Shown: piece after piece, positions 11,742-56,830 of the stretch | How the letters are laid out: every line of letters starts with the position of its first letter | Numbering within the stretch: position 1 is the stretch's first letter | Notes under the pieces: model-generated | Seen by the model: the letters and a program-made list of their open reading frames with translations, nothing else | Told to the model about the DNA's origin: nothing | The model's database searches: none | Made by a program: the position numbers and the translations under genes | Assembly (NCBI GenBank): GCA_028714455.1 | Contig: JAQTMG010000001.1 | Span: 64,568-128,567, forward strand | Source: Patescibacteria group bacterium | Lineage (GTDB): Bacteria > Patescibacteriota > Patescibacteriia > CAIXNZ01 | Length of the DNA: 64,000 nucleotides | Reading direction: 5' to 3'

Positions 11742-13121
11742 ATGTCAGAATATTCAAACATCAAAAAAGTTTCTCCTCCCGCCGAATTGCCCACGTACCA
11801 AGAAGAAAATGGTGATATTACTTTTTTTGGCAACACGACATTTAAAGAAGCTTACATAGAGAGGAAGGATGTATTCGGCATCTGGCGCTTTGATCGTCGC
11901 CAGCATATTTATATCATTGGTAAAACAGGAGTTGGCAAAACAAAGCTGATCGAACTCTTGACCAGAGCAGACATACTTGACGGTTTTGGCGTGTGTGTGA
12001 TAGACCCGCATGGCGACCTGATAAATTCTCTTCTCGATTATATTCCGGAAGGCCGATTAAAGGATGTTGTCCTGATTGATCCTACAGACACGAATTTCCC
12101 AGTGGCGTTTAATCCTCTTAAAAAAGTTGCGCCCGAGGCGAGACAGCTGGTGGCGAGCGGCTTACTTGAAGTTTTCCGCAAACAATTTGGCGATTTATGG
12201 ACCTCGCGCCTAGAACACGTGTGCAGATTCACAATTTTGGCGCTGCTAGAGTATGAGGAGGCGACGCTCGCCGATATATCTAAAATGCTCACCAACCCGA
12301 AATTCAGACAAGAAGTAATCCCGCGCATCTCTGATTCGGTTGTTCGCCATTTCTGGTCTCTGGAATTTAACAGCTGGAGCGAACGTTTTGACAACGAAGC
12401 CATCATCCCTCTCGTCAATCGAATGGGCCAGTTTTTGGCAAATCCGCTGGTGCGAAACACTTTCGCGCAAAAGGAAAATAAAATAAATTTTGACGAACTC
12501 ATAAATTCATCCAAAATCATACTTGTTAATCTGTCCAAGGGCATTATCGGCGAAGATAACACTGAACTTTTCGGCAGCATCTTGATTACTTCCATTTATC
12601 AGGCGGCTATGCGCAGGGCAAAGATTCCTAGTTCAGAGCGTTCTGATTTTTATCTCTATGTCGATGAGTTCCAAAACGTAGCGACGCAAACGTTTTTGAA
12701 TCTTTTTGCCGAATCAAGAAAATACGGATTGAATATTACCGTCTCCCACCAATATCTCGGCCAAGTTACCCCAAAAATGCGTGACACCATCTTCGGCAAC
12801 ACTGGGACAATTATTTCATTCCGTTTAGGAGGAGAGGATGCCGAGCGTTTGAACAAAGAATTCGCGCCCGTCTGCAAGGAAGAAGACCTGATCAATCTGG
12901 GTCAGCGTGAATTTGTAATAAAACTTTTAATCGCCGGAAACTCCTACGATCCATTTGCCGGCGAGACGCTAGAAGTGGAAGCCACAAAAACTTCGCACAA
13001 AGATCAGATAATCAACTATTCTCGATCAAAATATTCTCGCCCGATTAATGAACTAGAACAAGAAATGGCAGAGGGAGGCGCGGCAGAAAAAAAGGAGGAC
13101 TTTATAGCCCCGGTAGTTTAA
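11742..13121 (+). CDS. FtsK/HerA-superfamily P-loop NTPase (DUF87/HerA-like or TraD/VirD4/VirB4-like)
   Basis: Walker A IIGKTGVGKT, followed by VIDPHGDL, Walker B YLYVDEFQN, and ..ESRKYGLNITVSHQ.. No TM segments. Confidence 0.6.
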   Translation: MSEYSNIKKVSPPAELPTYQEENGDITFFGNTTFKEAYIERKDVFGIWRFDRRQHIYIIGKTGVGKTKLIELLTRADILDGFGVCVIDPHGDLINSLLDYIPEGRLKDVVLIDPTDTNFPVAFNPLKKVAPEARQLVASGLLEVFRKQFGDLWTSRLEHVCRFTILALLEYEEATLADISKMLTNPKFRQEVIPRISDSVVRHFWSLEFNSWSERFDNEAIIPLVNRMGQFLANPLVRNTFAQKENKINFDELINSSKIILVNLSKGIIGEDNTELFGSILITSIYQAAMRRAKIPSSERSDFYLYVDEFQNVATQTFLNLFAESRKYGLNITVSHQYLGQVTPKMRDTIFGNTGTIISFRLGGEDAERLNKEFAPVCKEEDLINLGQREFVIKLLIAGNSYDPFAGETLEVEATKTSHKDQIINYSRSKYSRPINELEQEMAEGGAAEKKEDFIAPVV

Positions 13122-21057: not shown

Positions 21058-21066
21058 TTTTTTCAC

Positions 21067-30387: not shown

Positions 30388-30737
30388 ATGAGTCTGGCTT
30401 TTCTTAAAGCTTCGCCCAGCACCCGCTCAATTTCCTTAAAATCCGCCACCCTGCCTTTCTCATAAATGATTTTAGGGGAAGTGATTACGGCAATGTCATA
30501 GCCGCTGGCAATCTGGCCCAAATTGTGGCGTAGAATCTCGCGGATTCTGCGCCTGATCAAATTGCGCTTATTTGCTCTTTTACTCACCTTGTTTGAGGTA
30601 ATTATGACAAAACGGGAGTAATTTAATCCGTTTTTCTGAAATCTTAGCACCAAAAATAAAAAATAAACCGCTTTGCCGTGCTTCATCAGCGACTCGATGT
30701 CTTTTTTAAGCTTTAAGCGGTTTATTTTTTTTAACAT
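30384..30737 (-). CDS. rnpA: ribonuclease P protein component
   Basis: Small basic protein placed between rpmH and yidD, with RnpA-like motifs. Confidence 0.8.
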
Positions 30738-30744
30738 ACTGTTT

Positions 30745-30897
30745 TCTATTTTCTCTTAGACCTCACGGTCAAGCGATGCCTGCCCTTGGCTCTTCTTCTT
30801 TTAAGTACGTGACGGCCATTTTTGGTCTTCATGCGCGCTCGAAAGCCGTGGGTTTTGGCTCTTTTTCGCTTTTTCGGCTGATAAGTTCTCTTTGGCA
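30745..30897 (-). CDS. rpmH: 50S ribosomal protein L34 (not in the ORF track; 50 aa)
   Basis: Hand-translated: [50 protein letters not shown]. Confidence 0.85.
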
Positions 30898-31103
30898 TAA
30901 AAGTGTAATAATTTATCGTGAAATTATACAGAGATAATAACAGTTGTGGAAAAATTTGTCAAAAAAAAAATTATGTATTAAGATGAATCCACAATTTGTG
31001 AACAAGCTATTAACATTTGTGACTTTTCTTAGATTTTTGTTCAATCTTTTTTATGTTATTATTTAATATAACGACTTCCTCAATCAAATAATTTCGGGGG
31101 ATT
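30898..31103. other. candidate oriC segment 1 (rpmH-dnaA spacer), AT-rich with DnaA-box-like 9-mers
   Basis: GAATCCACA and TTGTGGAAA / TTGTGAACA motifs. Classic rpmH<->dnaA position. Confidence 0.4.
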
Positions 31104-32477: not shown

Positions 32478-32762
32478 TTTTTGTTCACAGCGTGTGGATT
32501 AATATAATTTTTTCTGCGCAAAAGTTCTGCACATTAACTTTAAAAAGAATTGATAACTTCGGTAAAATTTTCACACCAAAATCTTTTGACTTTTTCACCC
32601 ACTTTTTATCAACCCACATACTACTATCTTTTACATAACTTTTAAACAACCATTTTGGGGTGATTTAATAAAATTTTCTGAAGAAAAATAAAAAATTATT
32701 AAAAAAATATTTTTCATCCACATCCTTATTATAATTACTATTAATTAAAACTATAAAAAACT
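32478..32762. other. candidate oriC segment 2 (dnaA-dnaN spacer) with DnaA boxes and an AT-rich unwinding region
   Basis: TGTGGATTA (32494-32502), TTGTTCACA, TCATCCACA (about 32716-32724), TTATCAACC. Also long A/T runs. Confidence 0.45.
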
Positions 32763-33917
32763 ATGAAAGCAACTTGTACACAAGAAAATTTAAAACGCGG
32801 GCTAAATATTGTTTCGCACATTTCCAGTAAAAACACTTCTTTACAAATTTTGGGAAATGTTTTAATTAAAGCCGATAAAAATGTGGTGAGTTTAATTACC
32901 ACCAACTTAGAAATGGGCGTCAGATGCCAGGTCCGCGCCAAAGTTTACAAAGAAGGCAGTTACACTGTCAATTCCCGGCTGCTCAATGACTTCGTGGGTT
33001 TATTAAAAAATGAAAAAGTTGATCTGGAATTAAAAGATGACGCGCTTGAGGTTTGGACTGATAATCAGGAAACAAAAATTAAGGGTGAAAGCGCTGAAGA
33101 ATTTCCCTTAATTCCTCAAATCAGTAAAAAGTCAGCCTATGTTTGTGGTATTGATGAACTCGTGCGCGCGCTCACCCAAGTTTTATTCGCTGTTTCTGTT
33201 TCAGAAACCAGGCCGGAGATCTCGGGTGTGTATTTTAACTTTAGCGATGGCAATTTAACCATCGCGGCTACTGATAGTTATCGTTTGGCCGAGAAAAAGA
33301 TTAAATTAAACGAGAAAAATGAGGTTGAAAAAGAAGCCATTATCCCGGCCAAGACCGTGCAAGAGCTTTTCCGCATGCTTTCTTCTGTTTCTGGCTCTGC
33401 CAGCGAAGAGGGCGGCGCTAGTAAACTAGAGATTTACTTTGAAGAAAACCAGGTCATGTTCGTTTTTGACGATATTGAACTGGTTTCCCGCGTGATTGAG
33501 GGCCAATATCCAAATTACAAGCAAATAATTCCAGCCAGCCATAAAACAAGAGCCGTAGCCAATATCTCTGATCTGGTTAGCGCGGTCAAGGCGGCCTCTT
33601 TATTCTCACGCACTGGTATTTATGATATTAACTTTGAACTCAAAGAGGGCAAATTGGTTATCTCTTCAACCAATAGCCAATTGGGTGAAAGCAAATCAAG
33701 GGTAGCGGGTAAAATAGAGGGTGATGATAATAAGGTGGTTATCAATTACCGCTATTTATTAGATGGTTTGCAAAACATTGATTCAACTGATGTAGTCTTT
33801 GAAATGATTGACTCTTCAAACCCCTGCATCTTAAGGCCAGCCGAGAGCTTGAATGATAAAAATGAAGCCATTGCCGCCCAGGATTATTTGTATATCATAA
33901 TGCCGATTAAACAATAA
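32763..33917 (+). CDS. dnaN: DNA polymerase III beta sliding clamp
   Basis: Full-length beta-clamp similarity; gene order is dnaA-dnaN. Confidence 0.95.
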   Translation: MKATCTQENLKRGLNIVSHISSKNTSLQILGNVLIKADKNVVSLITTNLEMGVRCQVRAKVYKEGSYTVNSRLLNDFVGLLKNEKVDLELKDDALEVWTDNQETKIKGESAEEFPLIPQISKKSAYVCGIDELVRALTQVLFAVSVSETRPEISGVYFNFSDGNLTIAATDSYRLAEKKIKLNEKNEVEKEAIIPAKTVQELFRMLSSVSGSASEEGGASKLEIYFEENQVMFVFDDIELVSRVIEGQYPNYKQIIPASHKTRAVANISDLVSAVKAASLFSRTGIYDINFELKEGKLVISSTNSQLGESKSRVAGKIEGDDNKVVINYRYLLDGLQNIDSTDVVFEMIDSSNPCILRPAESLNDKNEAIAAQDYLYIIMPIKQ

Positions 33918-44163: not shown

Positions 44164-45759
44164 ATGGTCATCAAAAAAATTATTCAAAAAACCAAGGAAC
44201 TGATTGAAAAAAATCAGTTTATTTTATATTTAGCGATTTTTGCCGCGGCTTTGTTTGTCGGCTTGTGGCTGCAGTCAAGCCCGACTTTTTTGGATCCCGA
44301 TTCTTTCTACCACTTAAAAATGGCCAAGTTAATAGCGGCTAATTTTGGTCCGATAATAAATTTTCCCTGGTTAAAATTTACGCTGCTGGCCAACGATTAT
44401 GTTGACCACCATTTTCTTTATCACGTGTTGGCGATACCCTTTATTAAAATATTGGGCGATTTGGCCGGTCTGAAATTTTATACCGTGATTTTATCTGCCG
44501 CGCTAGTCTTGTTGAGCTATTGGTTTTTTAAAAAATATAAAGTCGTTTACGCGGGAATTTTCGCTCTGGTTCTGCTTTTTTCGCCGGCCTTTTTATTTCG
44601 CGTCTCGCTGGTCAAGGGGAATTCATTTTCGTTAATCCTGCTTTTCCTGGGGATTTATTGCGTCTTTAAAAAAAGATATTGGCTTTTATTTTTGCTCTCT
44701 TTTATTTACGTTTGGTCATATGGAGGATTTTTATTAATTTTACTGATGTCGGGTGTCTACTCATTCTCGGTTGCTCTTTGGGCAACATTTAATGATAGTT
44801 ATTCGCAAAATTCCGTAAAATATTTTTTTAAAGTTTTATTTTCTCCGGAGAATCTAAAACCGATTATTTTTTCAGCGCTTGGCATTATTCTGGGAATTTG
44901 CGCAAATCCATATTTTCCCGGAAACATTAGTTTTTATTGGCAGCAGCTGGTGCAGATCGGTCTGATTAACTATCGGGGGGTAGTTAATGTAGGCGGCGAG
45001 TGGTATCCTTATCCGCCACTGCAGCTAATTGGCGATGCCGGCTTGGTTTTAATGTTTTTTTCGCTGGCCGTGATGTTATTTTTCGTCTTTATTAAGAAAC
45101 AAAAGCCCGAAACTATTTTTTTCTTTATCGCTTCACTGATTTTTTTGGCGTTAACGCTGAAATCAAAACGTTACGTTGAATATTTTATTCCATTTGTGGT
45201 ATATTTTTCGGCCCTGGCCACGACCTTGGCCTTGGGCGATATAAAAATCAAAGATTTAATTTCTAAAATAGAAAATATTGATAAGCGCCTCGGCAGATTG
45301 TTAATTCTAATATTCATTTATCTTTTGGTAATCATTCCTCTGGTGATGGTTAAAGACGCCTATATTACTTTTTCGAGCTTCAGAGGCGGCATTAGTTTCA
45401 CGCGTTTTAGCGGCGTCTCCGCTTATTTGGAGAAAAATACGAATCAGGGTGATGTGATCATGCACACCAGCTGGGATGATTTCCCCATGCTTTTTTATTA
45501 CAACTCCAAAGATTATTACATCGTCGGCTTGGATCCGACCTTCATGTACAATTACAGCCCATCATTGTACAATCTCTATGCCGATATTACCATGGCCAAG
45601 ATAAACACTAATTTATACCAACAGATTAAAGATAATTTTGGCGCTAAATATTTTGTCGTAAATAGCGGCCGAGACGCGCTGGAGAAGAATTTGCAAAATG
45701 ACGGCAATTTTACCAAGGTTTATGAAGACAGCGACGGCAAGATTTATAAATTGAAATAA
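44164..45759 (+). CDS. polytopic membrane protein, putative GT-C-fold glycosyltransferase (ArnT/PMT-like)
   Basis: More than 10 TM helices. DPDSFYH in the first periplasmic loop resembles the GT-C DExxY/R motif. Confidence 0.5.
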   Translation: MVIKKIIQKTKELIEKNQFILYLAIFAAALFVGLWLQSSPTFLDPDSFYHLKMAKLIAANFGPIINFPWLKFTLLANDYVDHHFLYHVLAIPFIKILGDLAGLKFYTVILSAALVLLSYWFFKKYKVVYAGIFALVLLFSPAFLFRVSLVKGNSFSLILLFLGIYCVFKKRYWLLFLLSFIYVWSYGGFLLILLMSGVYSFSVALWATFNDSYSQNSVKYFFKVLFSPENLKPIIFSALGIILGICANPYFPGNISFYWQQLVQIGLINYRGVVNVGGEWYPYPPLQLIGDAGLVLMFFSLAVMLFFVFIKKQKPETIFFFIASLIFLALTLKSKRYVEYFIPFVVYFSALATTLALGDIKIKDLISKIENIDKRLGRLLILIFIYLLVIIPLVMVKDAYITFSSFRGGISFTRFSGVSAYLEKNTNQGDVIMHTSWDDFPMLFYYNSKDYYIVGLDPTFMYNYSPSLYNLYADITMAKINTNLYQQIKDNFGAKYFVVNSGRDALEKNLQNDGNFTKVYEDSDGKIYKLK

Positions 45760-45760
45760 T

Positions 45761-48112
45761 ATGAAGCGTATTTTAATAGTAATTCCTGCCTACAATGAAG
45801 AAAAAATAATCGCTCAAAATCTCGAGCGTTTGGCTGATTTTTGCTCAAAAAATTTGATCGGAGATGAATTTAAAATTATTTTGGCTGATAATAATTCAAT
45901 TGATAAAACCTCCGAGATAGTCAAAAACTTGGCCGAAAAAGACAACATGATTATTTATCGTTACTATGATAAAAAGGGCAAGGGTCTGGCGGTTTTAAAC
46001 ACCTGGAGAAATGAAGCAAATAATTTTGATATTTTTGTCTTTATGGACGCTGACCTATCAACTGATTTATCAGCGTTGACTCCGCTCTTATTGGCTATTG
46101 TCCAGGGGAGCGATATAGCAGTTGGCTCACGCTATTTAAAAGATTCGGTTGTTAGGAGGCAATTTTCAAGAAGATTTTTTTCTCGCGGTTATAATACATT
46201 TTTTAGGTTCTTGCTTGGTGCTAAAATAAGTGATTATGCTTGCGGTTTTAAGGCGGTCAGCAAAAAAGTGGTGGCAGAGCTGGTTCCGAAAATAAAAAAC
46301 GATCAGTTCTTCTTTGATTCAGAGCTGCTTTTCCGAGCGGAAAAAGCACAATCTAAAATAAAAGAAATTCCAGTGAAATGGGCGGAGCCTCGCCAGAGTA
46401 ATGAAAGTAAAGTTAGCGTGTTAAAAGTTGCCTGGCGATATTTCAGAGAAATTTTGCGTCTGAAAAGAGAAAGCAACCCAAATAAATTAAGCCGCAATGA
46501 AATTAAATTTATCTGGTTAGTCGGTCTTATTTTGATTGCGGTTACGGCGCTGCCTTATCTGTATGGTTATCTTTCGAGAGGCGACCTTTATTACACGGGC
46601 GCTCATATATTTTCACCCGTAGATACACCAGTTTATTATTCTTATATTGAACAGGCAAAAGACGGACATTTTTTATTCGGCGATTTATTTTCCAATGAAC
46701 TTAACGAGCCGAGACTATTTAACCCGTTTTGGCTGTTAGTCGGGTTCGTGGCAAAAATTTTTAATCTGTCAGCTCCAATCGCGGTCCAAGTTTTTAGAAT
46801 AATTTTAATCCCCATATTTTTATTTGTTCTTTATAAATTTATTAGTTTTTTTATCGGCGAAAAGTATACCGTGACAAGAAAAAAAATGTGTTTTTTGTAT
46901 TCAATTTTTGCGACAGGTCTGGGCGGATTTTTTTATTACTGGCTGCACGCCGACATGAATAACGGCAACAGCTTTAATCTGGCCATGGATATGTGGGTAC
47001 CCGAAGCAAGTAATTTTTTAATAATATTTACATCGCCACATTTTATCGCTTCAATCACTTTAATAATCTCAATTTTCTATTTATTTTGGCTCTCGCTGGA
47101 CACTTTAAAATTTAGATATTCTATTGCCGCTGGTTTAGCCGCCCTTTTTTTGTTCGGTTTTCATCCATTTTTTATTCCCACAATTTATTTTATATCTTTT
47201 GTTTATTTAATTTTTCTTTTTTTAAAAAACAAAAAAATTGACCTTAAGCCAATTTTAAATTATTTTTTGCTGGTAATTATTTCGTTGCCGTCAGCACTTT
47301 ATTATTTGTATCTGCTCTTAACTGATTCAAGTCTAGGGGTTAAAGCAGCGCAGAATATTTGTCTGACGCCAGGAGGAATTAATTTTTTTATAAGCTATGG
47401 GCTTGGTTTATTTTTTGCGATTTTCGCCGTGGTGTACTTAGTTGAGAGCAAGCGAGCCAATAACAAATTATTCTTTCTTATTATTTGGTTTTGGTCGTCG
47501 ATTTTGCTGATTTACGGCCCTTTTAATTTTCAGCGACGCTTAACCGAAGGGTTTCAAGTTCCTTTAACTATTTTGGCTTTCATCGGTTTCGTAATAATTT
47601 GGGATTTATTGAAAACAAAATGGAAAATTTTTAGAGAAGCAAAACTTTGGCAAATACTCCCGTTTTTTATTTTTTTCTTTTGTTTCACCAATATCTTGGT
47701 TTATTACGGAGATTTTAGATTCCTCGCTTCCAAACCCGAGATTGTTTATATCGAGAAGGGAACAAAGACAGCCATGGATTGGTACAGAGTCAATTCTGGT
47801 TATGAAGACACGATTTTAGCTTCTCGAATCGATGGTAATTTAATTCCAGGCGTAATCGGCAGGAGAGTGTTCCTGGGCCATGATGTTGAAACGATAAATT
47901 ATAAACAGAAACTGGCCGAGATTATGAATTTTTTTGGCGGTAATAATGATGACCAGAAAAAGATAAATTTTTTGAAAGAAAACCGTATTGATTATTTATT
48001 TTACTCTGTTTCAGAAAAACGGCTCGGAAATTTTAACCCGTCAGTTAAGAATTATTTGGCTAAGATTTACGAAAAAAATGGCGTAGAGATTTTTAAAGTT
48101 ATTGGAGATTAA
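45761..48112 (+). CDS. GT2 glycosyltransferase (polyprenol-phosphate sugar synthase-like) fused to a large polytopic GT-C-like membrane domain
   Basis: N-terminus: ..VIPAYNEE..ADNNS.D.T......DADLS.. (GT2 DxD). C-terminus: about 12 TM helices. Confidence 0.75.
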   Translation: MKRILIVIPAYNEEKIIAQNLERLADFCSKNLIGDEFKIILADNNSIDKTSEIVKNLAEKDNMIIYRYYDKKGKGLAVLNTWRNEANNFDIFVFMDADLSTDLSALTPLLLAIVQGSDIAVGSRYLKDSVVRRQFSRRFFSRGYNTFFRFLLGAKISDYACGFKAVSKKVVAELVPKIKNDQFFFDSELLFRAEKAQSKIKEIPVKWAEPRQSNESKVSVLKVAWRYFREILRLKRESNPNKLSRNEIKFIWLVGLILIAVTALPYLYGYLSRGDLYYTGAHIFSPVDTPVYYSYIEQAKDGHFLFGDLFSNELNEPRLFNPFWLLVGFVAKIFNLSAPIAVQVFRIILIPIFLFVLYKFISFFIGEKYTVTRKKMCFLYSIFATGLGGFFYYWLHADMNNGNSFNLAMDMWVPEASNFLIIFTSPHFIASITLIISIFYLFWLSLDTLKFRYSIAAGLAALFLFGFHPFFIPTIYFISFVYLIFLFLKNKKIDLKPILNYFLLVIISLPSALYYLYLLLTDSSLGVKAAQNICLTPGGINFFISYGLGLFFAIFAVVYLVESKRANNKLFFLIIWFWSSILLIYGPFNFQRRLTEGFQVPLTILAFIGFVIIWDLLKTKWKIFREAKLWQILPFFIFFFCFTNILVYYGDFRFLASKPEIVYIEKGTKTAMDWYRVNSGYEDTILASRIDGNLIPGVIGRRVFLGHDVETINYKQKLAEIMNFFGGNNDDQKKINFLKENRIDYLFYSVSEKRLGNFNPSVKNYLAKIYEKNGVEIFKVIGD

Positions 48113-49976
48113 ATTTACCGAGCGATTTTTCACTGTCAATTACCGAAGAAATACTACCAATGCCGTTCAATTCATAACCGCCGCTCATACTTAAAATTTC
48201 AACATTATTTACTTTTGGCAGGTCATAAAAATTAATCTGGACTATCTGGCCAGTTTGCCAGCTGCTGGTCGGGTAAAAGCCATAGCCGAGAGCATAAATT
48301 TGGCCGTCAAGCTTGATTAAATAGTTTTCGCTGATTTGCTTCAGCGGTCGGAAATAAAGCGAGATAATATTGCCAGTTTGATTTGAGCCAAGAAATTCTA
48401 TCTGATCAGCCAGTTTTATATTCTGGCTGTTTTTTATTTCAGGCATTTTTTGGAAGATAGTATAAAGAGTTGGTTCCGCACCTTGGTAATTTCGTTGCCA
48501 GAGCGCCAGATTCCCGCTGACCATTTTCAAGTGATAATTTTTGTCTAGCAGCAGCTTTCTCATATTGGCCGCGCCCTGATAATAATATTCTTTGGCCGCT
48601 GTTTCATATTGCAAATGGAAACCGACAAAGTCATTAAAATTTAAAAGCAGATATTCAGTCTCGTTAGGCACAATGTAATCGCCGGCATTGTACTGCTGTT
48701 TTCCCAGAAAAACATAATTGAGTGAATATAATTTTTCTCTGGAGGAAAGATTGGAAATAAAATCATAATCAGTAATCAGCGAGGCTCCCGCCGGAATTTG
48801 TCTGACAAAATAATTTTTTTGCGCCACATCCTTGTAATTTATAGTGGCAATATCTGTAACTAAGGGAATAAGCGGGCCTAAAATCAAGAAATTATAAATA
48901 AGCGTTATGGCCAAGGCGATAAGAATTAGATCTTTGAATTTGTTATAGAAAATTAATGCCTTTTGGTTTTTTGACAATGATTCAAGTGAAAAAATCGTGG
49001 CGATTGAGAGAGCGAAAATAAAAGGCGTGGCGTAGTGCGTTCTCAAGATTGATTCGCCTGAAGCAAAGCCAAGAACTATTTCCATGAATTGGCCCAAGCA
49101 GAGGAGTAAGTATTTTGGGCGGTAAATCGGCAAAAAAATAAAAACCAGCAAAAAACCCAAAACCAATTCGACGTTGGCTAAGTTGACGACGTGCTGAAGC
49201 ACGAGCGGAAACTGGAGAAAAAAATTTTTGGCTATCTCCGGCAACGAAGTGCCCAGCCATTTGTAGTAGATTAAAAATTTATATTGAGATGAGGCGGAAA
49301 AAAACGAGACCATTTTTAGGGCGCCCAAAAAATATAAAGCTGAACCTATGGTCGCGGTTAAAATCCACTTCGGCTTTTTCTTATCAATGATGGCCACGAT
49401 GCCAAACATAAAAATCACAAAAGCCAGGTCTTCTCTGATCATCAGCGTTAAGATAGAAAGGATGATAAATGGCCAAAATTTATTTTCATCGTAAAAATAA
49501 AAGACCCAGAAAAGAAAAAACATGGCCAGGGCGAGCATGTGAAATTCAAAAAAATTAATATTCAGAGTCACCGGATTGAAGAGATATAAAATAATGGCCA
49601 GGAGCGCTGTCTGGGGCCGAAGATGCTTTTTACAAATTAAATAAAGCGGAATTGCTGAAAGCGCCAGGAATAATGATTGCATCAGTAACAAACTGATTGG
49701 CGATTTGTACAGAGAATATAGCGGCGCCAAAAATAAAATCATTATTTCAAAATGATCACCTAGATACAGAGTGGGATGAATCGTGAATTGAAATAATTTA
49801 CCGATTGAGGTATTGTAGAAAACCTGGTTGAAAATCGCCAAATCAAGGGCGTTATATTGATAGGTAAAGTATTTAAAGAGACAGGCGGAAAAGGTGAAAA
49901 TAAAATAAATAAAGACCAAAATCCAGGTAATTTTAGCCAATTTTTGCCAATTCAGAGTTTTAAAGTAATTAACCAT
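48099..49976 (-). CDS. DUF2079-family polytopic membrane protein with an extracytoplasmic C-terminal domain
   Basis: ..YNALDLAIFNQ...HFE.. motif typical of DUF2079. Confidence 0.6.
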   Translation of the reverse strand: MVNYFKTLNWQKLAKITWILVFIYFIFTFSACLFKYFTYQYNALDLAIFNQVFYNTSIGKLFQFTIHPTLYLGDHFEIMILFLAPLYSLYKSPISLLLMQSLFLALSAIPLYLICKKHLRPQTALLAIILYLFNPVTLNINFFEFHMLALAMFFLFWVFYFYDENKFWPFIILSILTLMIREDLAFVIFMFGIVAIIDKKKPKWILTATIGSALYFLGALKMVSFFSASSQYKFLIYYKWLGTSLPEIAKNFFLQFPLVLQHVVNLANVELVLGFLLVFIFLPIYRPKYLLLCLGQFMEIVLGFASGESILRTHYATPFIFALSIATIFSLESLSKNQKALIFYNKFKDLILIALAITLIYNFLILGPLIPLVTDIATINYKDVAQKNYFVRQIPAGASLITDYDFISNLSSREKLYSLNYVFLGKQQYNAGDYIVPNETEYLLLNFNDFVGFHLQYETAAKEYYYQGAANMRKLLLDKNYHLKMVSGNLALWQRNYQGAEPTLYTIFQKMPEIKNSQNIKLADQIEFLGSNQTGNIISLYFRPLKQISENYLIKLDGQIYALGYGFYPTSSWQTGQIVQINFYDLPKVNNVEILSMSGGYELNGIGSISSVIDSEKSLGKFNLQ

Positions 49977-50117: not shown

Positions 50118-50651
50118 ATGAAAAAGATTAGCGTGTTAATCGTCTTTGCGATGGTCACATTTTTTGTGGCCTCGTGCATGGAAGTCAAGCGACCCGGCCT
50201 CACGGCTCGAGTGATTGACCCCAGGGTCACCAAAACCCTGGCCGATCCCAAGGCCGATTACACCAACGGCGTGGCGCCGGCCATCGCCCAGATCTTGCCG
50301 AAGAACCCCAACGCGACAGTGATCATCTCTAAAAATGGAGACGTCACCTACATCGGGGACAACGGCAACGGCGGACAGCAGATGGGCATTTTCGAGAACC
50401 ACGCCAAACACGGCATCTTGGTGCGTGTCTACCGCGATGGGGAAGAAAAGCTTAGCTTTGAGGTCACACCTCGCGGCTACAAGCGGCTTTTTCTCCTGCC
50501 CGGGGAGTATGGCCTTAAGGTCATGGCGCCGGATCTGGTCACTATCTTGGCTGAAGGGGATTTCAGCGTCGACGCGATCGGAGCTGACAACTTCAGCGAG
50601 TACGCCAACATGCGGGTGGGTTTCATCCGCCAATATTATCCGGTCAGATAA
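50118..50651 (+). CDS. lipoprotein of unknown function (GC-rich cassette-like unit)
   Basis: Signal peptide with ..FFVASC lipobox-like Cys; about 58% GC. The overlapping minus/plus ORFs are antisense artefacts. Confidence 0.55.
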   Translation: MKKISVLIVFAMVTFFVASCMEVKRPGLTARVIDPRVTKTLADPKADYTNGVAPAIAQILPKNPNATVIISKNGDVTYIGDNGNGGQQMGIFENHAKHGILVRVYRDGEEKLSFEVTPRGYKRLFLLPGEYGLKVMAPDLVTILAEGDFSVDAIGADNFSEYANMRVGFIRQYYPVR

Positions 50652-50669: not shown

Positions 50670-50706
50670 AGAGAGGCAGCAGCCGTTGCCTCTCTCTTTT
50701 TTTATA
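50670..50706. terminator. bidirectional intrinsic terminator closing the pilin-like array
   Basis: AGAGAGGCA-gcagccg-TTGCCTCTCTCT with T7 / A-runs. Confidence 0.6.
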
Positions 50707-50709: not shown

Positions 50710-51135
50710 TTAACTTCCACCCGTAACTGTTCCTGGCGGTGTTCCCCCGCCACCTCCGCCGCCGACCGATTCCGTTATCGAATTCAAAACAAATGAGGCT
50801 ATCGAATAAGCGGCAATCACGATGATTAATCCGATCACGGCGTACATGATAGTACTTTTTGCCTTTTTAGTTTTGTCTGCTTCTCCCTGGGAAGTCATGT
50901 AAATAAAGCCTCCATATAAAATCAGACCAACAAAAATGATGCCGAGAAGGGTTAGAATTGATTTAATTATCAGCGACGCAACCTGTTGAGGCGGCATATA
51001 TGTGCCACCATAAATTTTTTGGCCAAAGCTGTTGACGTTTTCGCTGATGTTTAGGGCTAGTGACGGTTGAGTTAACAGCAGACAAAAGCCGGTTAAGATA
51101 ATGGGGATGAGTAAGAATTTTAAATTTTTTTTCAT
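50710..51135 (-). CDS. VirB2/TrbC-like pilin paralog P1 (Gly/Pro-rich tail ..GGGGGGTPPGTVTGGS)
   Basis: Signal peptide - helix (IIKSILTLLGIIFVGLILYGG) - MTSQGEADKTKKAK loop - helix - tail. Confidence 0.6.
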   Translation of the reverse strand: MKKNLKFLLIPIILTGFCLLLTQPSLALNISENVNSFGQKIYGGTYMPPQQVASLIIKSILTLLGIIFVGLILYGGFIYMTSQGEADKTKKAKSTIMYAVIGLIIVIAAYSIASFVLNSITESVGGGGGGGTPPGTVTGGS

Positions 51136-51143
51136 AATAAATT

Positions 51144-51647
51144 TTATTTACAGCCGCAAAGATCGCCGGAACAGCAACTCTGCGAGCAACAGCTTGCGCT
51201 GCCCGATTTTCTGTATTGGCAGCACTCGCAGGAATTATAATCAAGCGAACCCGCGTTTTCACATTTCGGATTAAAAGCCGGTTTTCCGCCGGGCGTTTCA
51301 ACCTGGGTTACTATAAAATAAGTTATTGAATAACCGGAGACGATAATTATGATGCCGATGACAGCCGCGATTATCGCGTTTTTGCCTTTCTTTACCTTGT
51401 CTGGTTCACCTTGAGAAGTCATGTACAAAAATCCGCCGTAAATTAACAGCGCCACAAAGATGATGCCGACCAGTCCCAACACGGCCTGTATTATAATCGC
51501 CGCATACTGCTCAACCGAAACATCGGTGAATCCAGATTCTTGCGCCGTGTTGGCTAATCCTTGTCCGAATTGCGAGGCAAAAACCTGATTGACGAGCGGC
51601 AGGGAAAGGGCTAAGGAAATTAAGATAAAGTAAAATGTTTTTTTCAT
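51144..51647 (-). CDS. VirB2/TrbC-like pilin paralog P2 (Cys-rich tail, 11 Cys)
   Basis: ..IIQAVLGLVGIIFVALLIYGGFLYMTSQGEPDKVKKGKNAIIAAVIGIIIIVSGYSITYFIV.. followed by a C-rich tail. Confidence 0.6.
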   Translation of the reverse strand: MKKTFYFILISLALSLPLVNQVFASQFGQGLANTAQESGFTDVSVEQYAAIIIQAVLGLVGIIFVALLIYGGFLYMTSQGEPDKVKKGKNAIIAAVIGIIIIVSGYSITYFIVTQVETPGGKPAFNPKCENAGSLDYNSCECCQYRKSGSASCCSQSCCSGDLCGCK

Positions 51648-51650
51648 AGG

Positions 51651-52034
51651 TTATGGCTTTACCTCGAGGGCGGCCGCGATGAAATATGTTATAGAATAGG
51701 CCGCGACTATTATCAAAAGGCCGATTATGGCGCCGGAAATTATTTTCTTGGCCCCCTCGACCTGTTTTTCATTGCCGGCTGACGTCATCCATCTTATGCC
51801 GCTATAGATTATTAATACCAAAAATATTATGCCGACCAATCCCAACACGGCCTGAATAATGGTGGCGATAAATGAAACTAGATCCGATTGTTGCAATCCT
51901 GCCTGATTAGCCGTGGAATTAATAAATTCCGTGGAATTTCCTAATTGCAAAGTGGCAGATGCGGCTTGAGCAAAAAATAATATAGTCAGGCAAAGCGCCA
52001 ACGATATTATTAAAGGTTTAAAATTTTTAAACAT
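51651..52034 (-). CDS. VirB2/TrbC-like pilin paralog P3 (no tail)
   Basis: Same two-helix core as P2. Its IIQAVLGLVGIIF segment is identical to that of P2. Confidence 0.6.
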   Translation of the reverse strand: MFKNFKPLIISLALCLTILFFAQAASATLQLGNSTEFINSTANQAGLQQSDLVSFIATIIQAVLGLVGIIFLVLIIYSGIRWMTSAGNEKQVEGAKKIISGAIIGLLIIVAAYSITYFIAAALEVKP

Positions 52035-52057
52035 ATAATTTTTTGTATCAACTAATT

Positions 52058-52483
52058 TTAACTTCCGCCGACTACTGTTCCTGGCGGAATGCCACCCGTA
52101 GGACCAGTTGATTGTTCTATGGCCGAGGTGACAAAAAAAGTAATCGCATAGGCACCGACTACGATGACTAACCCTATAACGGCATATTCTAGAATTTTTT
52201 TGGCTTGGCTAATCTTTTTTTCTTCGCCGCCACTTGTCATCCAGAGTACACCCCCATAAATAAATAAAACGACAAAAGCAACGCCCACTATTCCGAGAGC
52301 AACATTGATAATGCCCGCGACAATGGCGGCGGGATCACTTTGTTTAAGGCCGGTCTCTCCGGCTGTTTGCTGAAAAAATCCAGTTACATCCTTAAATGAA
52401 TAAGCAAGACAACTTTGAGAAAAAATTAAAAAACAAAAAACAGCAAGTGAAAAAATTACTATTGTGGTTGTTTTTTTGGACAT
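52058..52483 (-). CDS. VirB2/TrbC-like pilin paralog P4 (Gly/Pro-rich tail ..TGGIPPGTVVGGS)
   Basis: Core ..ALGIVGVAFVVLFIYGGVLWMTSGGEEKKISQAKK.. The tail matches P1. Confidence 0.6.
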   Translation of the reverse strand: MSKKTTTIVIFSLAVFCFLIFSQSCLAYSFKDVTGFFQQTAGETGLKQSDPAAIVAGIINVALGIVGVAFVVLFIYGGVLWMTSGGEEKKISQAKKILEYAVIGLVIVVGAYAITFFVTSAIEQSTGPTGGIPPGTVVGGS

Positions 52484-52485
52484 AT

Positions 52486-52869
52486 TTATTTACCGGCACC
52501 CGAGATGGCCTGGAAAACCAAACTGGTAATCGCATAGGCGGCGCCTAACACTATCGCTCCAATGATGGCCCAGGTAATTATTTCCTTGCCTTTTTTCACC
52601 TGTTCTTCTTTACCGGCTGCGGTCATTATTCTGATTCCGCCGTAGATTATTAGAAATAGAAATAATGAACCGGCAATGGCCAGGGCTGCGCCAGCGATTT
52701 GCCCAAGAAATTGGGCGGCCGTGATATTAATATTCAAACCGGCCTGACCAGCCGTTTCATTTAGGCCGTAACTGTTATCAGCAGCAATCGCCGCGGTTAC
52801 TAAAATAATAGCAAATAATGAAAGTGTTATTAAAAATGGTAATATTTTTTTTAAATATTTTTTTTTCAT
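52486..52869 (-). CDS. VirB2/TrbC-like pilin paralog P5
   Basis: Core ..LFLFLIIYGGIRIMTAAGKEEQVKKGKEII.. Confidence 0.55.
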   Translation of the reverse strand: MKKKYLKKILPFLITLSLFAIILVTAAIAADNSYGLNETAGQAGLNINITAAQFLGQIAGAALAIAGSLFLFLIIYGGIRIMTAAGKEEQVKKGKEIITWAIIGAIVLGAAYAITSLVFQAISGAGK

Positions 52870-52923
52870 AATTTTCGTATTATTTAAGGGTAGACAACCT
52901 GCCTACCCTTAAATAAATTTTAT

Positions 52924-53286
52924 TTACGTTGCGTTCAATATGCTTCCAACGACGAAGTTGGCTATGGCGTAAGCTGACAGTACAATCACTAAGCCGATAA
53001 CGCCTTGGAAAAGAAGTGATTTCGCGCTTTTTACAGCGTCCTCATTCCCCATGGCCGTCATCCATTTAAAGCCGCCGACTAAGATTATGACTATCGCGAT
53101 GATGCCCAAAAGTCCCATCATGACGTTGATAATGCTAGCGACAGTAGCTCTGATGTCTCTCGTGCCTAGGCCGATGGCGGTGGCATAAGAAATACCCACA
53201 TCAATGCTGACTGCGCCGGCGACTTGAGGCAATAAGATGAGGGCAAGCAGGCCCAAGAAGATAGCCGTTGTTATGCTCTTTTTCAT
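52924..53286 (-). CDS. VirB2/TrbC-like pilin paralog P6
   Basis: Likely start at MKKSITT (53286). Core ..LLGIIAIVIILVGGFKWMTAMGNEDAVKSAK.. Confidence 0.55.
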   Translation of the reverse strand: MKKSITTAIFLGLLALILLPQVAGAVSIDVGISYATAIGLGTRDIRATVASIINVMMGLLGIIAIVIILVGGFKWMTAMGNEDAVKSAKSLLFQGVIGLVIVLSAYAIANFVVGSILNAT

Positions 53287-53445
53287 GTTTTTAGTTCCTT
53301 TGATGCTTGGCAAGGCCAAGCAATGGATTATTAATAATTATATAATTCCGCGTTGGCGGGTAATTTTTTAAGTACAATTTATTTATTTCATTATAATATT
53401 TCTGCTAATAAAAGGCAAGATTTGTGTTTTTTACTTCAGCGTTTC

Positions 53446-54030
53446 CTAGTCGGAAGTTGAGTTTTGAATACAGCAGATTGGGGTGCCGCCAGAACAGTCA
53501 GTGAAAGATCCGTTTTGTTCTAAATAGCCCTCGTCGCAAGTAAAAGCGGCGCACTTATAGCCCTTGCCAAGGCTGGCTGCGTATAACTGGCAGGTGGTGG
53601 TATTTTGAGTTTGCGTGATTGGCGTTTCAGTGTTTGGCTTGACTCCTCCGGTGCCGCCGGTTATACCGCTGACAATAAAGCTGACAAAGACATAACTGCC
53701 AAAAATTACTATCAGCCCTATAATTGCCCAAGTTAAAACATCTTTGCCTTTTTTTACCATGTCTGGGTTGCCGTGTGAGGTTAGCATGTACATTCCCCCA
53801 TAAATAAACATTATAAAGGCGATGGAACCGACAATGCCCAGCAAAACCTTAACAGTGTTGCCGATAACTTGGGGCACTGTCAGGTTGGTGGAAACGGGAC
53901 TTATGTCGCTAATATCTATTGATTGTGAGCCAGAACTGCCTTGCGCCAGGCAATAGCTACAAGCCAATAAACAGCCTAACAATATCGTAAAAAGGAAAAA
54001 ACATTTGAGGCCTAGTTGTTTCGTTTTCAT
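53446..54030 (-). CDS. VirB2/TrbC-like pilin paralog P7 (Thr-rich linker plus a Cys-rich tail, 8 Cys)
   Basis: Core ..LLGIVGSIAFIMFIYGGMYMLTSHGNPDMVKKGKDVL.. Confidence 0.6.
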   Translation of the reverse strand: MKTKQLGLKCFFLFTILLGCLLACSYCLAQGSSGSQSIDISDISPVSTNLTVPQVIGNTVKVLLGIVGSIAFIMFIYGGMYMLTSHGNPDMVKKGKDVLTWAIIGLIVIFGSYVFVSFIVSGITGGTGGVKPNTETPITQTQNTTTCQLYAASLGKGYKCAAFTCDEGYLEQNGSFTDCSGGTPICCIQNSTSD

Positions 54031-54051
54031 ATGGTTATTTAATTATTTATG

Positions 54052-54477
54052 TTATTTAGTGGGAGCGGTACAGGTTAAATTCTTCGATATGTAGTCTCTC
54101 GCGTTTTGGATTTGCCCGCCAGTCGCGGCCAGGACCGCAAAATTTACGATCGTGTAGGCCAATATAACTATCGTTAACCCGATCACGGAGTTTACTAAAA
54201 TATTTTTTCCCTTAGAAACCATGGCTGGGTTGCCGTGAGAAGCGAGCATGTAGATACCTCCGTATACAAAATAGATGAAAATTATACTGCCGATGATGCC
54301 GATGACAAATCGGCCGATATTTATTACCGTCTGTATTATGTCGCAGAGCGAGCAATCTCCAGTGGACACGCAAGCTGGCAATAAAATCCCATTACTTTGA
54401 GCCAGTGCAAATTTAGCGCTTAATAAAAGTGCCGAGAGTGAGGCAAGCAGAACAATAATTATTTTTGTCTTTTTCAT
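54052..54477 (-). CDS. VirB2/TrbC-like pilin paralog P8 (Cys cluster before the core, short Cys tail)
   Basis: Core ..IGIIGSIIFIYFVYGGIYMLASHGNPAMVSKGKNIL.. Confidence 0.6.
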   Translation of the reverse strand: MKKTKIIIVLLASLSALLLSAKFALAQSNGILLPACVSTGDCSLCDIIQTVINIGRFVIGIIGSIIFIYFVYGGIYMLASHGNPAMVSKGKNILVNSVIGLTIVILAYTIVNFAVLAATGGQIQNARDYISKNLTCTAPTK

Positions 54478-54481: not shown

Positions 54482-55855
54482 CTAATAAGTTTGATTAATT
54501 TTTCCTACCCCCAGGTTAATTATTTGCTCGGTCGGCAGTGTTCCCGCGAGATTCTGGTTTATCATATCCTTAAAAATTTGTTCAGCCGCCTGTTCGTTTT
54601 TGCCCTTGTACCAGCTTTTGGCTGTCAGAATTTGGTTAACAAAAGGCGAGAGCTCCTGATCGTCAATTTGTGAACTTATCAAGCTTCTTAGGGCAGTGGG
54701 CAGATGAGCTCTACTTAAATATTGTTTGGTGTTATTTTCATTGGCCGCGATGTAGAGGATGAAATCCCAGGCTTCGTTTGGATGTTGGCTTTTTTTGGAA
54801 ACCGTGCTCACCCAGTAATTGGCAAAATTAAGCGGATTGCCGATTTGCGGTATGGGCGCGATCTGAAAATTTAATTTTGGCGCTTGGGTTTTTAGAGTGG
54901 GAATCTGGTAGGCGTAGCCGAAAAAGAAAGCGGTTTTGCCGTTTTCAAAACTCTGAAGCGATTCGCTCATCTTGCTGTTCCAGGTATAGGCTTGATTGGC
55001 TGGCGAAGCGAAGCTGGTATAAAAATTAAGCGCCTCGATGGCGGGCGAGCCTGATCTATTGAAGCCCGCGGGTACCTGGCTAAACGTCGCCAAACCGGCC
55101 TCGTTTATCATCGGCGCTCCGTCCTGCATCATAAGCAGGCTCAAGATGTCGGTTGAGCGTGTGACATTGTCGGCTGTGCCTATGGCGGCGCCGGCTTGGA
55201 TTATATTTCCCTTGGTGTCCTGTTTGGTCAGCTTGATCACGTCATTTCTTAATTCGTCCCAGGTTTTTGGCGGCGAGGAAATCCCAGCGTTGTTCAGCAG
55301 GTCTCGATTATAATACAGGGCCAGCGTGTCGATGCTTAGGGGTAGTCCGTAAATTTGGTCGCTAATTACCTGGTTATCATAAACAACGTCCGGATAAAGA
55401 TTTCTTATATCGAGCAGTGATAAAGTTTTTTCCGTTTTCATTTGCGTGTAGGTTTGTTTCTGGATGGTGCCGCTTTGCACTTCGGTAGGTATGGTTAGCG
55501 AAGCCGGCAAAGGGAGTATCTTAGCGGCGTAGCTGCCCATCCAGGTTGTCTGGATGGAAAAAATATCAGGGCCTCTGTCTTCTGCCAGGGCGTTTAGAAG
55601 TTCGTTTTCATATTCCTCGGCCGTAAAATTTTTGTAATTGATGGTGATGTGGGGATGTTGCTGTTGATAAGTAGCTAAAAGATCTTGCAGATTTGAACTG
55701 TCGTTAAAAACGCTCCAGTAGTTTAAAGTTATTGGCGTTGGTTTGCCTGGGGTTAAACCGGCTGGCGGTCCGCCGCACTGAAAACCACTTGTGATGATTA
55801 CCAGCGATAAAACGGCCAGGATAAATATTTTTTTGTTTTGGCAGAATTTTTTCAT
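54482..55855 (-). CDS. extracellular solute-binding lipoprotein (ABC-type sugar-binding family 1), orphan
   Basis: Signal peptide with ..ITSGFQC lipobox-like Cys. SBP_bac_1-like length and motifs. No permease/ATPase genes adjacent. Confidence 0.7.
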   Translation of the reverse strand: MKKFCQNKKIFILAVLSLVIITSGFQCGGPPAGLTPGKPTPITLNYWSVFNDSSNLQDLLATYQQQHPHITINYKNFTAEEYENELLNALAEDRGPDIFSIQTTWMGSYAAKILPLPASLTIPTEVQSGTIQKQTYTQMKTEKTLSLLDIRNLYPDVVYDNQVISDQIYGLPLSIDTLALYYNRDLLNNAGISSPPKTWDELRNDVIKLTKQDTKGNIIQAGAAIGTADNVTRSTDILSLLMMQDGAPMINEAGLATFSQVPAGFNRSGSPAIEALNFYTSFASPANQAYTWNSKMSESLQSFENGKTAFFFGYAYQIPTLKTQAPKLNFQIAPIPQIGNPLNFANYWVSTVSKKSQHPNEAWDFILYIAANENNTKQYLSRAHLPTALRSLISSQIDDQELSPFVNQILTAKSWYKGKNEQAAEQIFKDMINQNLAGTLPTEQIINLGVGKINQTY

Positions 55856-55863: not shown

Positions 55864-56733
55864 CTAAATTTTTATGTTTTTTAAATAATTTCGAATCTCT
55901 TTGACTGTGTCGGCTCTTTTCAGGCCCAAATCAATGTTGGCTTGCAGCCAGCCGATTTTTGAGCCGGTGTCGTAGTAAGTTCCTTCAACTAGAGCGGCCA
56001 AAAGTCTTCTCTTTTTAGAAAGATTGCAGATCGCGTCGACCAGCCAGAGTTCGCCACCCTTGCCGATTTTAGTTTTTTCCAGCTCTTCAAAGATGTCGGG
56101 AGTCAGGATGTAGGCGCCGAGAGTACCGATGCGGCTCGGAGCTTTTTGCGGGCCTGGTTTTTCAACAATGCTTTTTATCTGAAAGACATTTTTTTCAATT
56201 TTTTCGCCGTCTATCACGCCGTATTTTTTGGTGCCCTCGTCGTCAATCTCAATGGCCGTCAGAACCGGATCCTCATATTTATTGAAGACATCAATAAGTT
56301 GCGAGAGCCGCGGTTTTTTTTCGTTTAAGAAAAGATCGTCGCCCCAGATCACGGCAAACGGCTCATCGCCTATTATTCTTTTGGCATTCAGAACCGGCGT
56401 GCCGTTTCCATATGGACCTTTTTGCCTGATGTATATGAAATTTGCCAGATCGGCTATTTTTTTGATTTCTGCCCGCAGATCTTCCTTGCCTTGCTTTTTT
56501 AGCCAATTCTGAAGTTCGTAATTATAGTCAAAGTGATCTTCGATCGCCCTCTTTGAAGCGCCGGTCACCAATATTATATCTTCAATGCCCGAGGCCACCG
56601 CTTCCTCGACGATGTATTGGATAACTGGCTTGTCGATGATTGGTAGCATCTCCTTGGGCATGGCTTTTGTCAGCGGCAGAAAGCGCGTGCCAAAGCCCGC
56701 CACCGGTATGATGGCTTTTTTTATTTTAAGCAT
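55864..56733 (-). CDS. galU: UTP--glucose-1-phosphate uridylyltransferase
   Basis: KKAIIPVAGFGTRFLPLTKAMPKEMLPIIDKPVIQY.VEEA..SGI.. Confidence 0.9.
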   Translation of the reverse strand: MLKIKKAIIPVAGFGTRFLPLTKAMPKEMLPIIDKPVIQYIVEEAVASGIEDIILVTGASKRAIEDHFDYNYELQNWLKKQGKEDLRAEIKKIADLANFIYIRQKGPYGNGTPVLNAKRIIGDEPFAVIWGDDLFLNEKKPRLSQLIDVFNKYEDPVLTAIEIDDEGTKKYGVIDGEKIEKNVFQIKSIVEKPGPQKAPSRIGTLGAYILTPDIFEELEKTKIGKGGELWLVDAICNLSKKRRLLAALVEGTYYDTGSKIGWLQANIDLGLKRADTVKEIRNYLKNIKI

Positions 56734-56795: not shown

Positions 56796-56830
56796 AAACA
56801 AAAACGTCCCGCGGCGCGGGACGTTTTTTA
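56796..56830 (-). terminator. intrinsic terminator between the amidase gene and galU
   Basis: GTCCCGCG-gc-GCGGGAC hairpin with a T-run on the minus strand. Shares the core CCCGCGGCGCGGG with the terminator at 62689-62718. Confidence 0.55.

Follow-up and report, generated by a model that had tools for sequence, protein, structure and literature searches.

The stretch of DNA analysed here (the window) comprises 64,000 nucleotides of contig JAQTMG010000001.1 from the Patescibacteria group bacterium assembly GCA_028714455.1 (positions 64,568 to 128,567 of the forward strand), and all coordinates given are those of the window. At 50710-54477 it carries eight consecutive minus-strand open reading frames (ORFs), P1 to P8, which encode relatives of the pilins of type IV secretion systems (T4SS) and lie exactly where the original prediction, made from the sequence alone, had placed them. 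From P1 to P8, the proteins are 141, 167, 127, 141, 127, 131, 194 and 141 aa long and the intergenic gaps measure 8, 3, 23, 2, 54, 126 and 21 nt. Together with a galU-like gene and a gene for a solute-binding protein (SBP), they form a ten-gene co-directional block bracketed by hairpins at 56800-56828 and 50670-50695, in which the galU-like gene ends 8 nt before the SBP start and the SBP stop codon lies 4 nt before the start of P8. The array had been described as running on into the SBP and galU genes; the direction of transcription puts both of them upstream of the array. The hairpin terminator expected further upstream is present, and Pfam agrees with the amidase, Wzx-like, SBP and galU-like assignments of the neighbours. 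In the order of transcription, the features are as follows.

56800..56828, both strands: bidirectional hairpin terminator with a 13-bp stem (7 G-C pairs) and a T-run on either strand, dividing the amidase and Wzx genes from the block.
55864..56733, minus strand: galU-like nucleotidyltransferase, first gene of the block (Pfam NTP_transferase, E = 1.1e-28).
54482..55855, minus strand: membrane-tethered solute-binding protein of the SBP_bac_1 family (Pfam SBP_bac_1, E = 7.8e-34; SBP_bac_8, E = 1.2e-30).
54052..54477, minus strand: P8, 141 aa, with three Cys before the hairpin and one in the tail (PF18895, 39.0 bits).
53446..54030, minus strand: P7, 194 aa, with a Thr-rich linker and a Cys-rich C-terminal mini-domain with 6 Cys (PF18895, 44.3 bits).
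53390..53418, minus strand: promoter-like element in the gap between P7 and P6, TTGCCT-17-TATAAT (10/12 consensus positions).
52924..53319, minus strand: P6, 131 aa from a TTG (probably 120 aa from an internal ATG), tailless (PF18895, 35.0 bits; TrbC, 22.6 bits, sub-threshold).
52486..52869, minus strand: P5, 127 aa, tailless (PF18895, 41.2 bits).
52058..52483, minus strand: P4, 141 aa, with a Gly/Pro-rich tail terminating in PPGTVVGGS (PF18895, 36.9 bits).
51651..52034, minus strand: P3, 127 aa, tailless (PF18895, 40.9 bits).
51144..51647, minus strand: P2, 167 aa, with a Cys-rich tail having 10 Cys in the final 39 residues (PF18895, 38.5 bits; NF045849, 41.8 bits).
50710..51135, minus strand: P1, 141 aa, with a Gly-rich tail terminating in PPGTVTGGS (PF18895, 38.9 bits; PF04956, 30.0 bits; NF045849, 42.1 bits).
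50670..50695, called by the scan on the plus strand with a T-run: hairpin between convergent genes that closes the pilin block (11-bp stem, 6 G-C pairs), 15 nt past the P1 stop.

For P6, the internal ATG (MKKSITT...), located 11 codons 3' of the listed TTG, is the more likely start, and the element at 53390..53418 is a possible internal promoter, proposed purely from its match to the consensus. A sequence identical to P3 is already in the public protein library (P0054), the array is contained in Logan contig SRR22315509_23931, and the GC content of the array falls inside the range of the whole window. The convergent gene for a 177-aa lipoprotein-like protein (50118-50651) was considered as a part of the module and rejected, because it has neither family matches nor a homolog in the related loci described below.

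The search of each ORF with hidden Markov models (HMMs), which had been proposed as a check, showed that all eight proteins pass the T4SS_pilin model PF18895, with 35.0-44.3 bits (E = 1.9e-11 to 1.5e-8) at a gathering threshold of 26.6 bits, and the precomputed Pfam labels on the public contig match this assignment. The TrbC/VirB2 model PF04956 (threshold 27.9 bits) is passed by P1 at 30.0 bits; P2, P3, P4, P6, P7 and P8 are sub-threshold (13.6-22.6 bits) and P5 has no match. Both P1 and P2 (42.1 and 41.8 bits) pass the curated cut-off of 40 bits for NCBIfam NF045849 (Mbov_0395 pilin-like conjugal transfer protein), with the remaining six paralogs under it at 17.4-33.7 bits. The predicted VirB2/TrbC-like 'T4SS pilin' assignment therefore stands (eight of eight on PF18895, and P1 on PF04956 as well) and, as judged by these profiles, P1-P8 are VirB2/TrbC-superfamily members of the T4SS_pilin family that is enriched in the candidate phyla radiation (CPR). 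This family is very large, as a profile of the eight paralogs found 84,908 cluster representatives at E <= 0.001 in 1.84 billion proteins. When P1 was compared by tblastn with 72,556 plasmids, the sole match was a Firmicute gene, carried by a megaplasmid of Pontibacillus and annotated as pilin-like and for conjugal transfer, whose product is 44% identical to P1 over the hairpin. A VirB4-like ATPase and a large peptidoglycan endopeptidase are encoded four genes downstream of it, and its setting is a monoderm conjugation cluster.

In a multiple alignment, the full-length pairwise identity of P1-P8 has a mean of 32% (range 22-43%), compared with 39% for the hairpin core, and seven columns are invariant (G65, G76, G84, K93, I101, G102 and Y110 in P1 numbering). 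The hydropathy scan gave three hydrophobic segments in each protein, namely a signal peptide terminating in an AxA-like site and then two segments of ~30 residues, and the loop joining these two is ~10 residues long with 2-4 Lys/Arg in every paralog. Alignment and hydropathy thus bear out the shared blueprint that had been proposed (signal peptide, variable segment, helix, basic loop, helix, variable tail), including the higher conservation of the core. The AlphaFold2 model of P2, made with the eight paralogs as alignment, also agrees with the expected fold, since the monomer is a helical hairpin (helices 45-76 and 82-117) with a predicted local distance difference test (pLDDT) score of 82-89, and the tail has a pLDDT <50. 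Structure searches matched generic hairpins alone and a PDB sequence-profile search gave no match, and these results neither help nor hurt the pilin reading. An ATP-synthase c-subunit reading, for which the sole hint was one Foldseek match (1a91, E = 2.4), was rejected because no such Pfam family matched and there is no acidic residue among the invariant columns. The eight genes are real, diverged, neighbouring copies of a conjugative-pilin relative.

It had been stated that the arrangement could not be mapped to a described system, which does not hold, as tandem pilin arrays of Patescibacteria are published (PMC12102498, PMC10633639, PMC12857230, bioRxiv 10.1101/258137). An array of 4-6 small VirB2-related signal-peptide proteins was reported in Saccharibacteria in 2018 (bioRxiv 10.1101/258137), and Southlakia epibionticum has an essential series of predicted pilins encoded within its T4SS cluster (PMC10633639, PMC12857230). 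A survey of 3,035 Patescibacteria genomes with the same Pfam models reported VirB2-like genes in 1,948 VirB4-containing assemblies; these genes were near virB4 in 1,135/1,948 assemblies, and no pilin gene was near virB4 in 813/1,948 (PMC12102498). The survey also listed 441 Patescibacteria arrays of 2-11 pilin genes, with a mean identity of 25% and a maximum of 54% (PMC12102498), and a 2025 review singles out such arrays as what may be a monoderm pilus (PMC12857230). By the published definition (at least two pilin genes in tandem or one gene apart), the eight consecutive genes of the window, with gaps of 2-126 nt, are an array. Like the arrays of S. epibionticum ML1 (SEML1_0006-0019), of N. 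lyticus TM7x (described as an 'array of small signal-peptide proteins') and of the survey (PMC12102498), it consists of tandem genes matching PF18895/PF04956 in a Patescibacterium host and encodes proteins that combine a signal peptide with a hairpin, and the published arrays are likewise often unlinked from virB4. The divergence is also similar (mean of 32% in the window vs. a published mean of 25% and maximum of 54%). The window array is hence a further example of the described Patescibacteria arrays and not a new system. Unlike the S. epibionticum series, it stands outside any T4SS cluster. It also follows an SBP gene at a distance of 4 nt and shares its orientation and that of a galU-like gene, a link that is not mentioned for the published Patescibacteria arrays. 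From the names of the related genomes, the lineage of the window is ABY1-like, whereas the published arrays were reported to be commonest in Saccharimonadia and Microgenomatia.

The proteins resemble TrbC/VirB2 (PF04956) in having a signal peptide, two hydrophobic helices and a short basic loop, and differ from TrbC/VirB2 of Gram-negative T4SS in the monoderm-type host, the lack of an adjoining virB operon, the presence of eight paralogs instead of one gene, and the long variable tails. The TrbC/VirB2 comparison includes head-to-tail cyclisation, lipid co-assembly and pilus formation, whereas the window array is known from genes and predictions. As regards the NF045849 family of monoderm integrative and conjugative elements and plasmids, P1 and P2 are above its cut-off, but members of that family are single genes in mobile conjugation clusters, while the window has eight chromosomal copies near the replication origin, without the relaxase or VirB4 of such clusters. 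Tandem VirB2 genes of Bartonella and Anaplasma (cited in PMC12102498) are, as here, amplified and diverged pilins, thought to vary the exposed host-contact surface; both are diderm organisms that infect eukaryotes, their paralogs belong to virB loci, and they are likened to the window array by description, not by sequence.

Related loci were collected from one genome per species with a four-member pilin alignment as a seed, which gave 80 loci. All 80 are from Patescibacteria/CPR-type metagenome-assembled genomes (MAGs), among them Magasanik-, Uhr-, Falkow-, Buchanan-, Komeili- and Nomurabacteria and Saccharimonadales, and none is >50% identical; the proteins neighbouring the array in the window are 47-64% identical to proteins of these loci. 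The HMM of the eight paralogs, run against the ORFs of the loci, yielded 362 module proteins, with at least two tandem pilins in 65/80 loci, at least four in 43/80, and 13 in the largest array. Many of the loci (L003, L006, L008, L012-L015 and others) belong to MAGs titled 'uncultured Gammaproteobacteria bacterium' (binchicken co-assemblies) that have typical CPR genes and pilin arrays; these record titles appear mislabelled.

A tight and conserved regularity of the related loci concerns the SBP gene. A directly adjoining SBP homolog on the same strand is present in 32/44 loci with at least three pilins (including L005, L007, L015, L027, L030, L042, L043, L047, L057 and L058), and in 20/23 of those with at least 3 kb of upstream sequence, compared with 0/34 loci with one or two pilins. 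A galU homolog occurs in 26/80 loci, usually immediately upstream of the SBP gene, so that the order galU > SBP > pilins is recurrent, with one pilin between galU and SBP in some loci; in some relatives DUF2079, a family 2 glycosyltransferase (GT2) and a polytopic protein come after the block, which is also the case in the window. The SBP of the window has a Cys after the N-terminal hydrophobic stretch and its orthologs share a G-F/L-G-C motif there, which suggests lipid anchoring, and NCBIfam gives weak matches to sugar SBPs. The description of this gene as an orphan is correct in that no ABC permease or ATPase partner is encoded nearby, but incorrect in that the SBP is a conserved partner of large pilin arrays. 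This link of the SBP (usually with galU) to large arrays is unmentioned in the cited literature on Patescibacteria pilin arrays.

The genes downstream of the array in the window (44164-49976) encode a membrane protein of the DUF2079 family, a GT2 glycosyltransferase (783 aa) and a protein of 531 aa whose matches to STT3 and glycopolymer-formation families are weak. The set is syntenic with the array in several relatives, and its family matches are hints of surface glycan or protein glycosylation functions.

In the relatives, the hairpin module is also found in much larger proteins, with a range of 500-3100 aa and ectodomain fusions of 400-3000 aa. Giant proteins of 1800-3100 aa with an N-terminal signal peptide and hairpin are encoded at L023 10001-19297, L064 9836-19207, L062 9821-18919, L004 11607-19169 and elsewhere, and three other proteins, P0001 (820 aa), P0002 (552 aa) and P0004 (1775 aa), are single chains of 6-17 consecutive hairpins with one signal peptide. 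Neither the giant proteins nor the multi-hairpin chains are mentioned in the cited literature on Patescibacteria pilin arrays. The multi-hairpin proteins look like fused 'poly-pilin' versions of the tandem arrays, and in some other proteins an insert of 100-400 aa precedes the hairpin, which is then C-terminal. Each giant protein is preceded by a second fusion protein, of ~500-650 aa in the loci named and ~890 aa in others, for example L045, and the context contains signal peptidase I, HisRS and YqeY/RelA. In three loci of the Magasanikbacteria type (L002 13021-18542, L016 12686-18561 and L017 6180-11047), the array is followed by FtsH and a gene for a T2SSE-type ATPase, of the kind found in type IV pilus or type II secretion systems.

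Taking the above together, we consider it likely that the block is a chromosomal operon-like unit consisting of the galU-like gene, the SBP lipoprotein gene and eight T4SS_pilin genes, and that the pilins are subunits of a T4SS encoded elsewhere in the genome. The pilins would be made with a Sec signal peptide and processed by Sec and signal peptidase, and the cleaved protein would remain in the cytoplasmic membrane as a two-helix hairpin with its Lys-rich loop presumably cytoplasmic, the variable N-terminal segment and the variable C-terminal tail facing outside. Judging from homology and the Saccharibacteria precedent, the subunits are probably clients of a monoderm-type T4SS (VirB4/TrsD/VirB3/VirB6) located elsewhere in the genome, which would build from them a pilus-like or conduit structure where the cell touches its host bacterium. 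The diverged exposed segments would then serve as alternative binding or recognition surfaces; among them are the Gly/Pro-rich tails and the Cys-rich mini-domains, the latter probably disulfide-bonded. The analysis shows the paralogy, the family membership, the predicted topology, the hairpin model, the chromosomal setting and the conservation of the neighbouring genes; the processing, the membrane orientation, the T4SS dependence, the polymerisation and the role in host interaction are what we infer. The T4SS link is supported by the plasmid match of P1 near a VirB4-like gene, by the VirB4 of locus L079, and by a relative with VirB4 and TrsD elsewhere in its genome. The latter is L043 (assembly GCA_000991205.1, ABY1), which has the same galU-SBP-pilin order as the window; in Table S3 of the survey, this assembly has TrsD and VirB4 at coding sequences 233-234, and VirB2 at coding sequences 464-466 and 648, flagged as not near virB4 (PMC12102498). 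Given this unlinked case and the 813/1,948 assemblies mentioned above, an array without nearby machinery is a documented situation. The idea of adhesins or host-range variation is the same speculation as in the literature.

Several results weigh against the assignment to a T4SS. A Pfam scan of all ORFs of at least 440 aa and of 28 smaller ORFs found no VirB4 in the 64-kb window, and tblastn of the window with a VirB4 query returned chance-level matches alone, so both approaches agree with the predicted lack of VirB4; VirB6, VirB3 and TrsD were not recognised in the window scans either. A VirB4 lies within 10 kb of the array in 1/80 related loci, namely L079, where the homolog (E = 7e-124, phmmer) is five ORFs from a six-pilin array. 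According to the cited literature, no T4SS pilus has been observed in any Patescibacterium (PMC10633639, PMC11665869, PMC12857230), and the pilin series is essential in the one species tested (PMC10633639, PMC11665869, PMC12857230). The module proteins of 500-3100 aa and the chains of 6-17 hairpins are awkward for a simple homopolymeric pilus.

The conserved neighbours of the arrays were also considered as possible T4SS machinery and rejected, as they prove to be housekeeping or envelope genes. Among 32 representatives of the large unclassified neighbour ORFs of the relatives, one (1/32) gave a TraG/VirB4 P-loop match, and phmmer with a VirB4 query recovered a VirB4 homolog in L079 only. The recurring neighbours are HisRS, signal peptidase I, YqeY, LytR, EngA, RelA/SpoT, QueA and SMC, and further a Mg-chelatase-like ATPase, FtsH, PPDK, Lgt, a transporter of the major facilitator superfamily and glycosyltransferases. 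Outside the array, the only T4SS-related candidate of the window is the following gene, 38 kb away.

11742..13121, plus strand: soluble ATPase of 459 aa resembling type IV coupling proteins (T4CP/VirD4/TraD-like; TrwB_AAD_bind, 31.6 bits; DUF87).

Its TrwB_AAD_bind score is above the cut-off of 20.5 bits, and NCBIfam TraD and VirD4-like CD1115 are far under their cut-offs; the claim that no VirD4 is encoded within the 64 kb is, given these weak TrwB/TraD/VirD4-like matches, correct only in part. T4CP-like genes number about two per Patescibacteria genome and are mostly distant from virB4, and the one of S. epibionticum is not essential (PMC12102498). The ATPase gene is followed after 9 nt by a gene for a 572-aa Cys-rich protein without a Pfam or NCBIfam match (11742-14849 for the pair, plus strand), and a TrmB-like regulator is encoded divergently upstream of the ATPase.

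The main rival reading sees in the hairpin a membrane anchor or scaffold that needs no T4SS. Singly or in lateral oligomers, the proteins would remain in the cytoplasmic membrane and display variable ectodomains, acting together with the tethered sugar-binding lipoprotein and the products of envelope-glycan genes, for example to capture glycans of the host or of the cell itself or to organise the surface. The adjacency of the SBP to arrays of at least three pilins (32/44, or 20/23 with enough upstream sequence) and not to those of one or two (0/34) speaks for this reading, and in some loci the SBP even lies inside the array, or is paired with one pilin while the rest are displaced. The flanking galU, GT2, DUF2079, weakly STT3-like, Wzx and amidase genes, the rarity of a nearby VirB4 (1/80), the ectodomain fusions of 400-3000 aa and the chains of 6-17 hairpins point the same way. 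However, the homology to VirB2/TrbC and to the pilin-like proteins of monoderm conjugation clusters has to be set against it, as does the essential pilin series that S. epibionticum encodes within its T4SS cluster (PMC10633639). Common ancestry in one Patescibacteria class could account for part of the synteny, and L043, which shares this synteny, encodes VirB4 and TrsD at another place in its genome. All things considered, we regard this scaffold as unlikely, if deserving of attention. To hypothesize further, large hairpin arrays with a tethered sugar-binding lipoprotein (usually with galU) might be a conserved module of ABY1-like Patescibacteria that is independent of, or loosely coupled to, the T4SS ATPases; the hairpin would be a general, modular scaffold of membrane or filament for interchangeable ectodomains (Cys-rich mini-domains, giant adhesin-like extensions, concatenated hairpins) and the SBP a glycan-recognising partner at the host contact. 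We find this proposal quite doubtful at present.

It seems very improbable that the array is an antigenic or phase-variation cassette, in which silent and expressed copies swap segments by recombination. The paralogs are diverged with variable exposed ends, the tail-encoding DNA of P1 and P4 is 80% identical across 44 nt (repeat D6), and the literature compares the Patescibacteria arrays with the VirB2 paralogs found in Bartonella and Anaplasma (PMC12102498), but all eight genes are intact, each with its own start codon, signal peptide and stop codon. Recombination between the copies was rejected, as the array has no long similar DNA tracts: no repeat in it exceeds 106 nt or 81% identity, with no long near-identical tracts in the repeat scan, the two inverted repeats are weak (19-26 nt, 77-84% complementary), and no recombinase family is among the Pfam matches of the window. 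As for a phage origin, with the genes as small membrane proteins (holin or coat) of a prophage, the small size, the two transmembrane helices and a sub-threshold match of P3 to a putative-holin Pfam family (17.3 vs. 25.3 bits) are the points in favour. The PHROGs search gave nothing better than E = 0.0018 and no holin or coat family, the GC content lies within the range of the window, and the block is syntenic across many genomes. Its surroundings are core chromosomal genes near the replication origin: rnpA, dnaA (31104-32477) and dnaN (32763-33917) lie at the minimum of the cumulative GC skew (region 30384-33917), therefore the chromosomal origin is inside the window, and the array is ~19 kb from dnaA and transcribed towards the origin. 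The window also carries 16S rRNA, four tRNA genes, ftsK, trigger factor, recA, ssb, ruvC and a class A penicillin-binding protein. The block is thus chromosomal and not in a prophage, a location that had been named as a point to be checked, and a phage origin is excluded.

The tails differ in part from the original prediction. P2 has 10 Cys in the last 39 residues and not 11 in about 35, and P7 has 6 Cys in its C-terminal tail instead of 8, with four others in the signal-peptide region; in P8, instead of Cys clusters on both sides of the core, three Cys precede it and one follows. Of the 362 module proteins, 105 are essentially tailless and 69 carry a tail of >100 aa; the others have short tails, 143 of them with no compositional bias, 15 of them Gly/Pro-rich and 30 with at least 4 Cys. 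The P7 tail aligns with Cys-rich pilin tails of several other genomes in a common pattern, C...C...C...(I/V)CC, and, since such tails align across genomes, they are drawn from recurring small domains and not from random sequence; these recurrent Cys-rich tail domains are unmentioned in the cited literature on Patescibacteria pilin arrays. The domain of the P7 type often terminates in PK (L028 7546-8163, L066 9101-9823, L072 5065-5589, L038 7969-8532). The GGS ending of P1 and P4, considered as a conserved processing signal, did not recur as a C-terminal motif in other genomes among the 362 proteins, therefore such a signal is without support and was rejected; the ending is private to the window and reflects local duplication.

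One further array leaves the picture of the T4SS and of the unusual pilin series in Patescibacteria unchanged. The SBP link, the Cys-rich tails, the giant ectodomains and the multi-hairpin chains may be more useful than the array itself, as they raise testable ideas on the exposed parts of these proteins and on the need for a T4SS, and specialists may take note of the SBP linkage and of the architectures in which the module is fused or concatenated.

Two other regions of the window can be mentioned. At 7663-10413 on the minus strand, a complete 16S rRNA gene (8916-10413) is followed by tRNA-Ile, tRNA-Phe, tRNA-Pro and tRNA-Gly genes and, with no 23S rRNA gene in the 64 kb, the rRNA genes are unlinked. 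At 18946-22878 on the plus strand, two adjoining genes encode large, apparently surface-exposed proteins, one with a GHL15 glycosyl-hydrolase-like domain and FG-GAP repeats and the other with DUF11 repeats.

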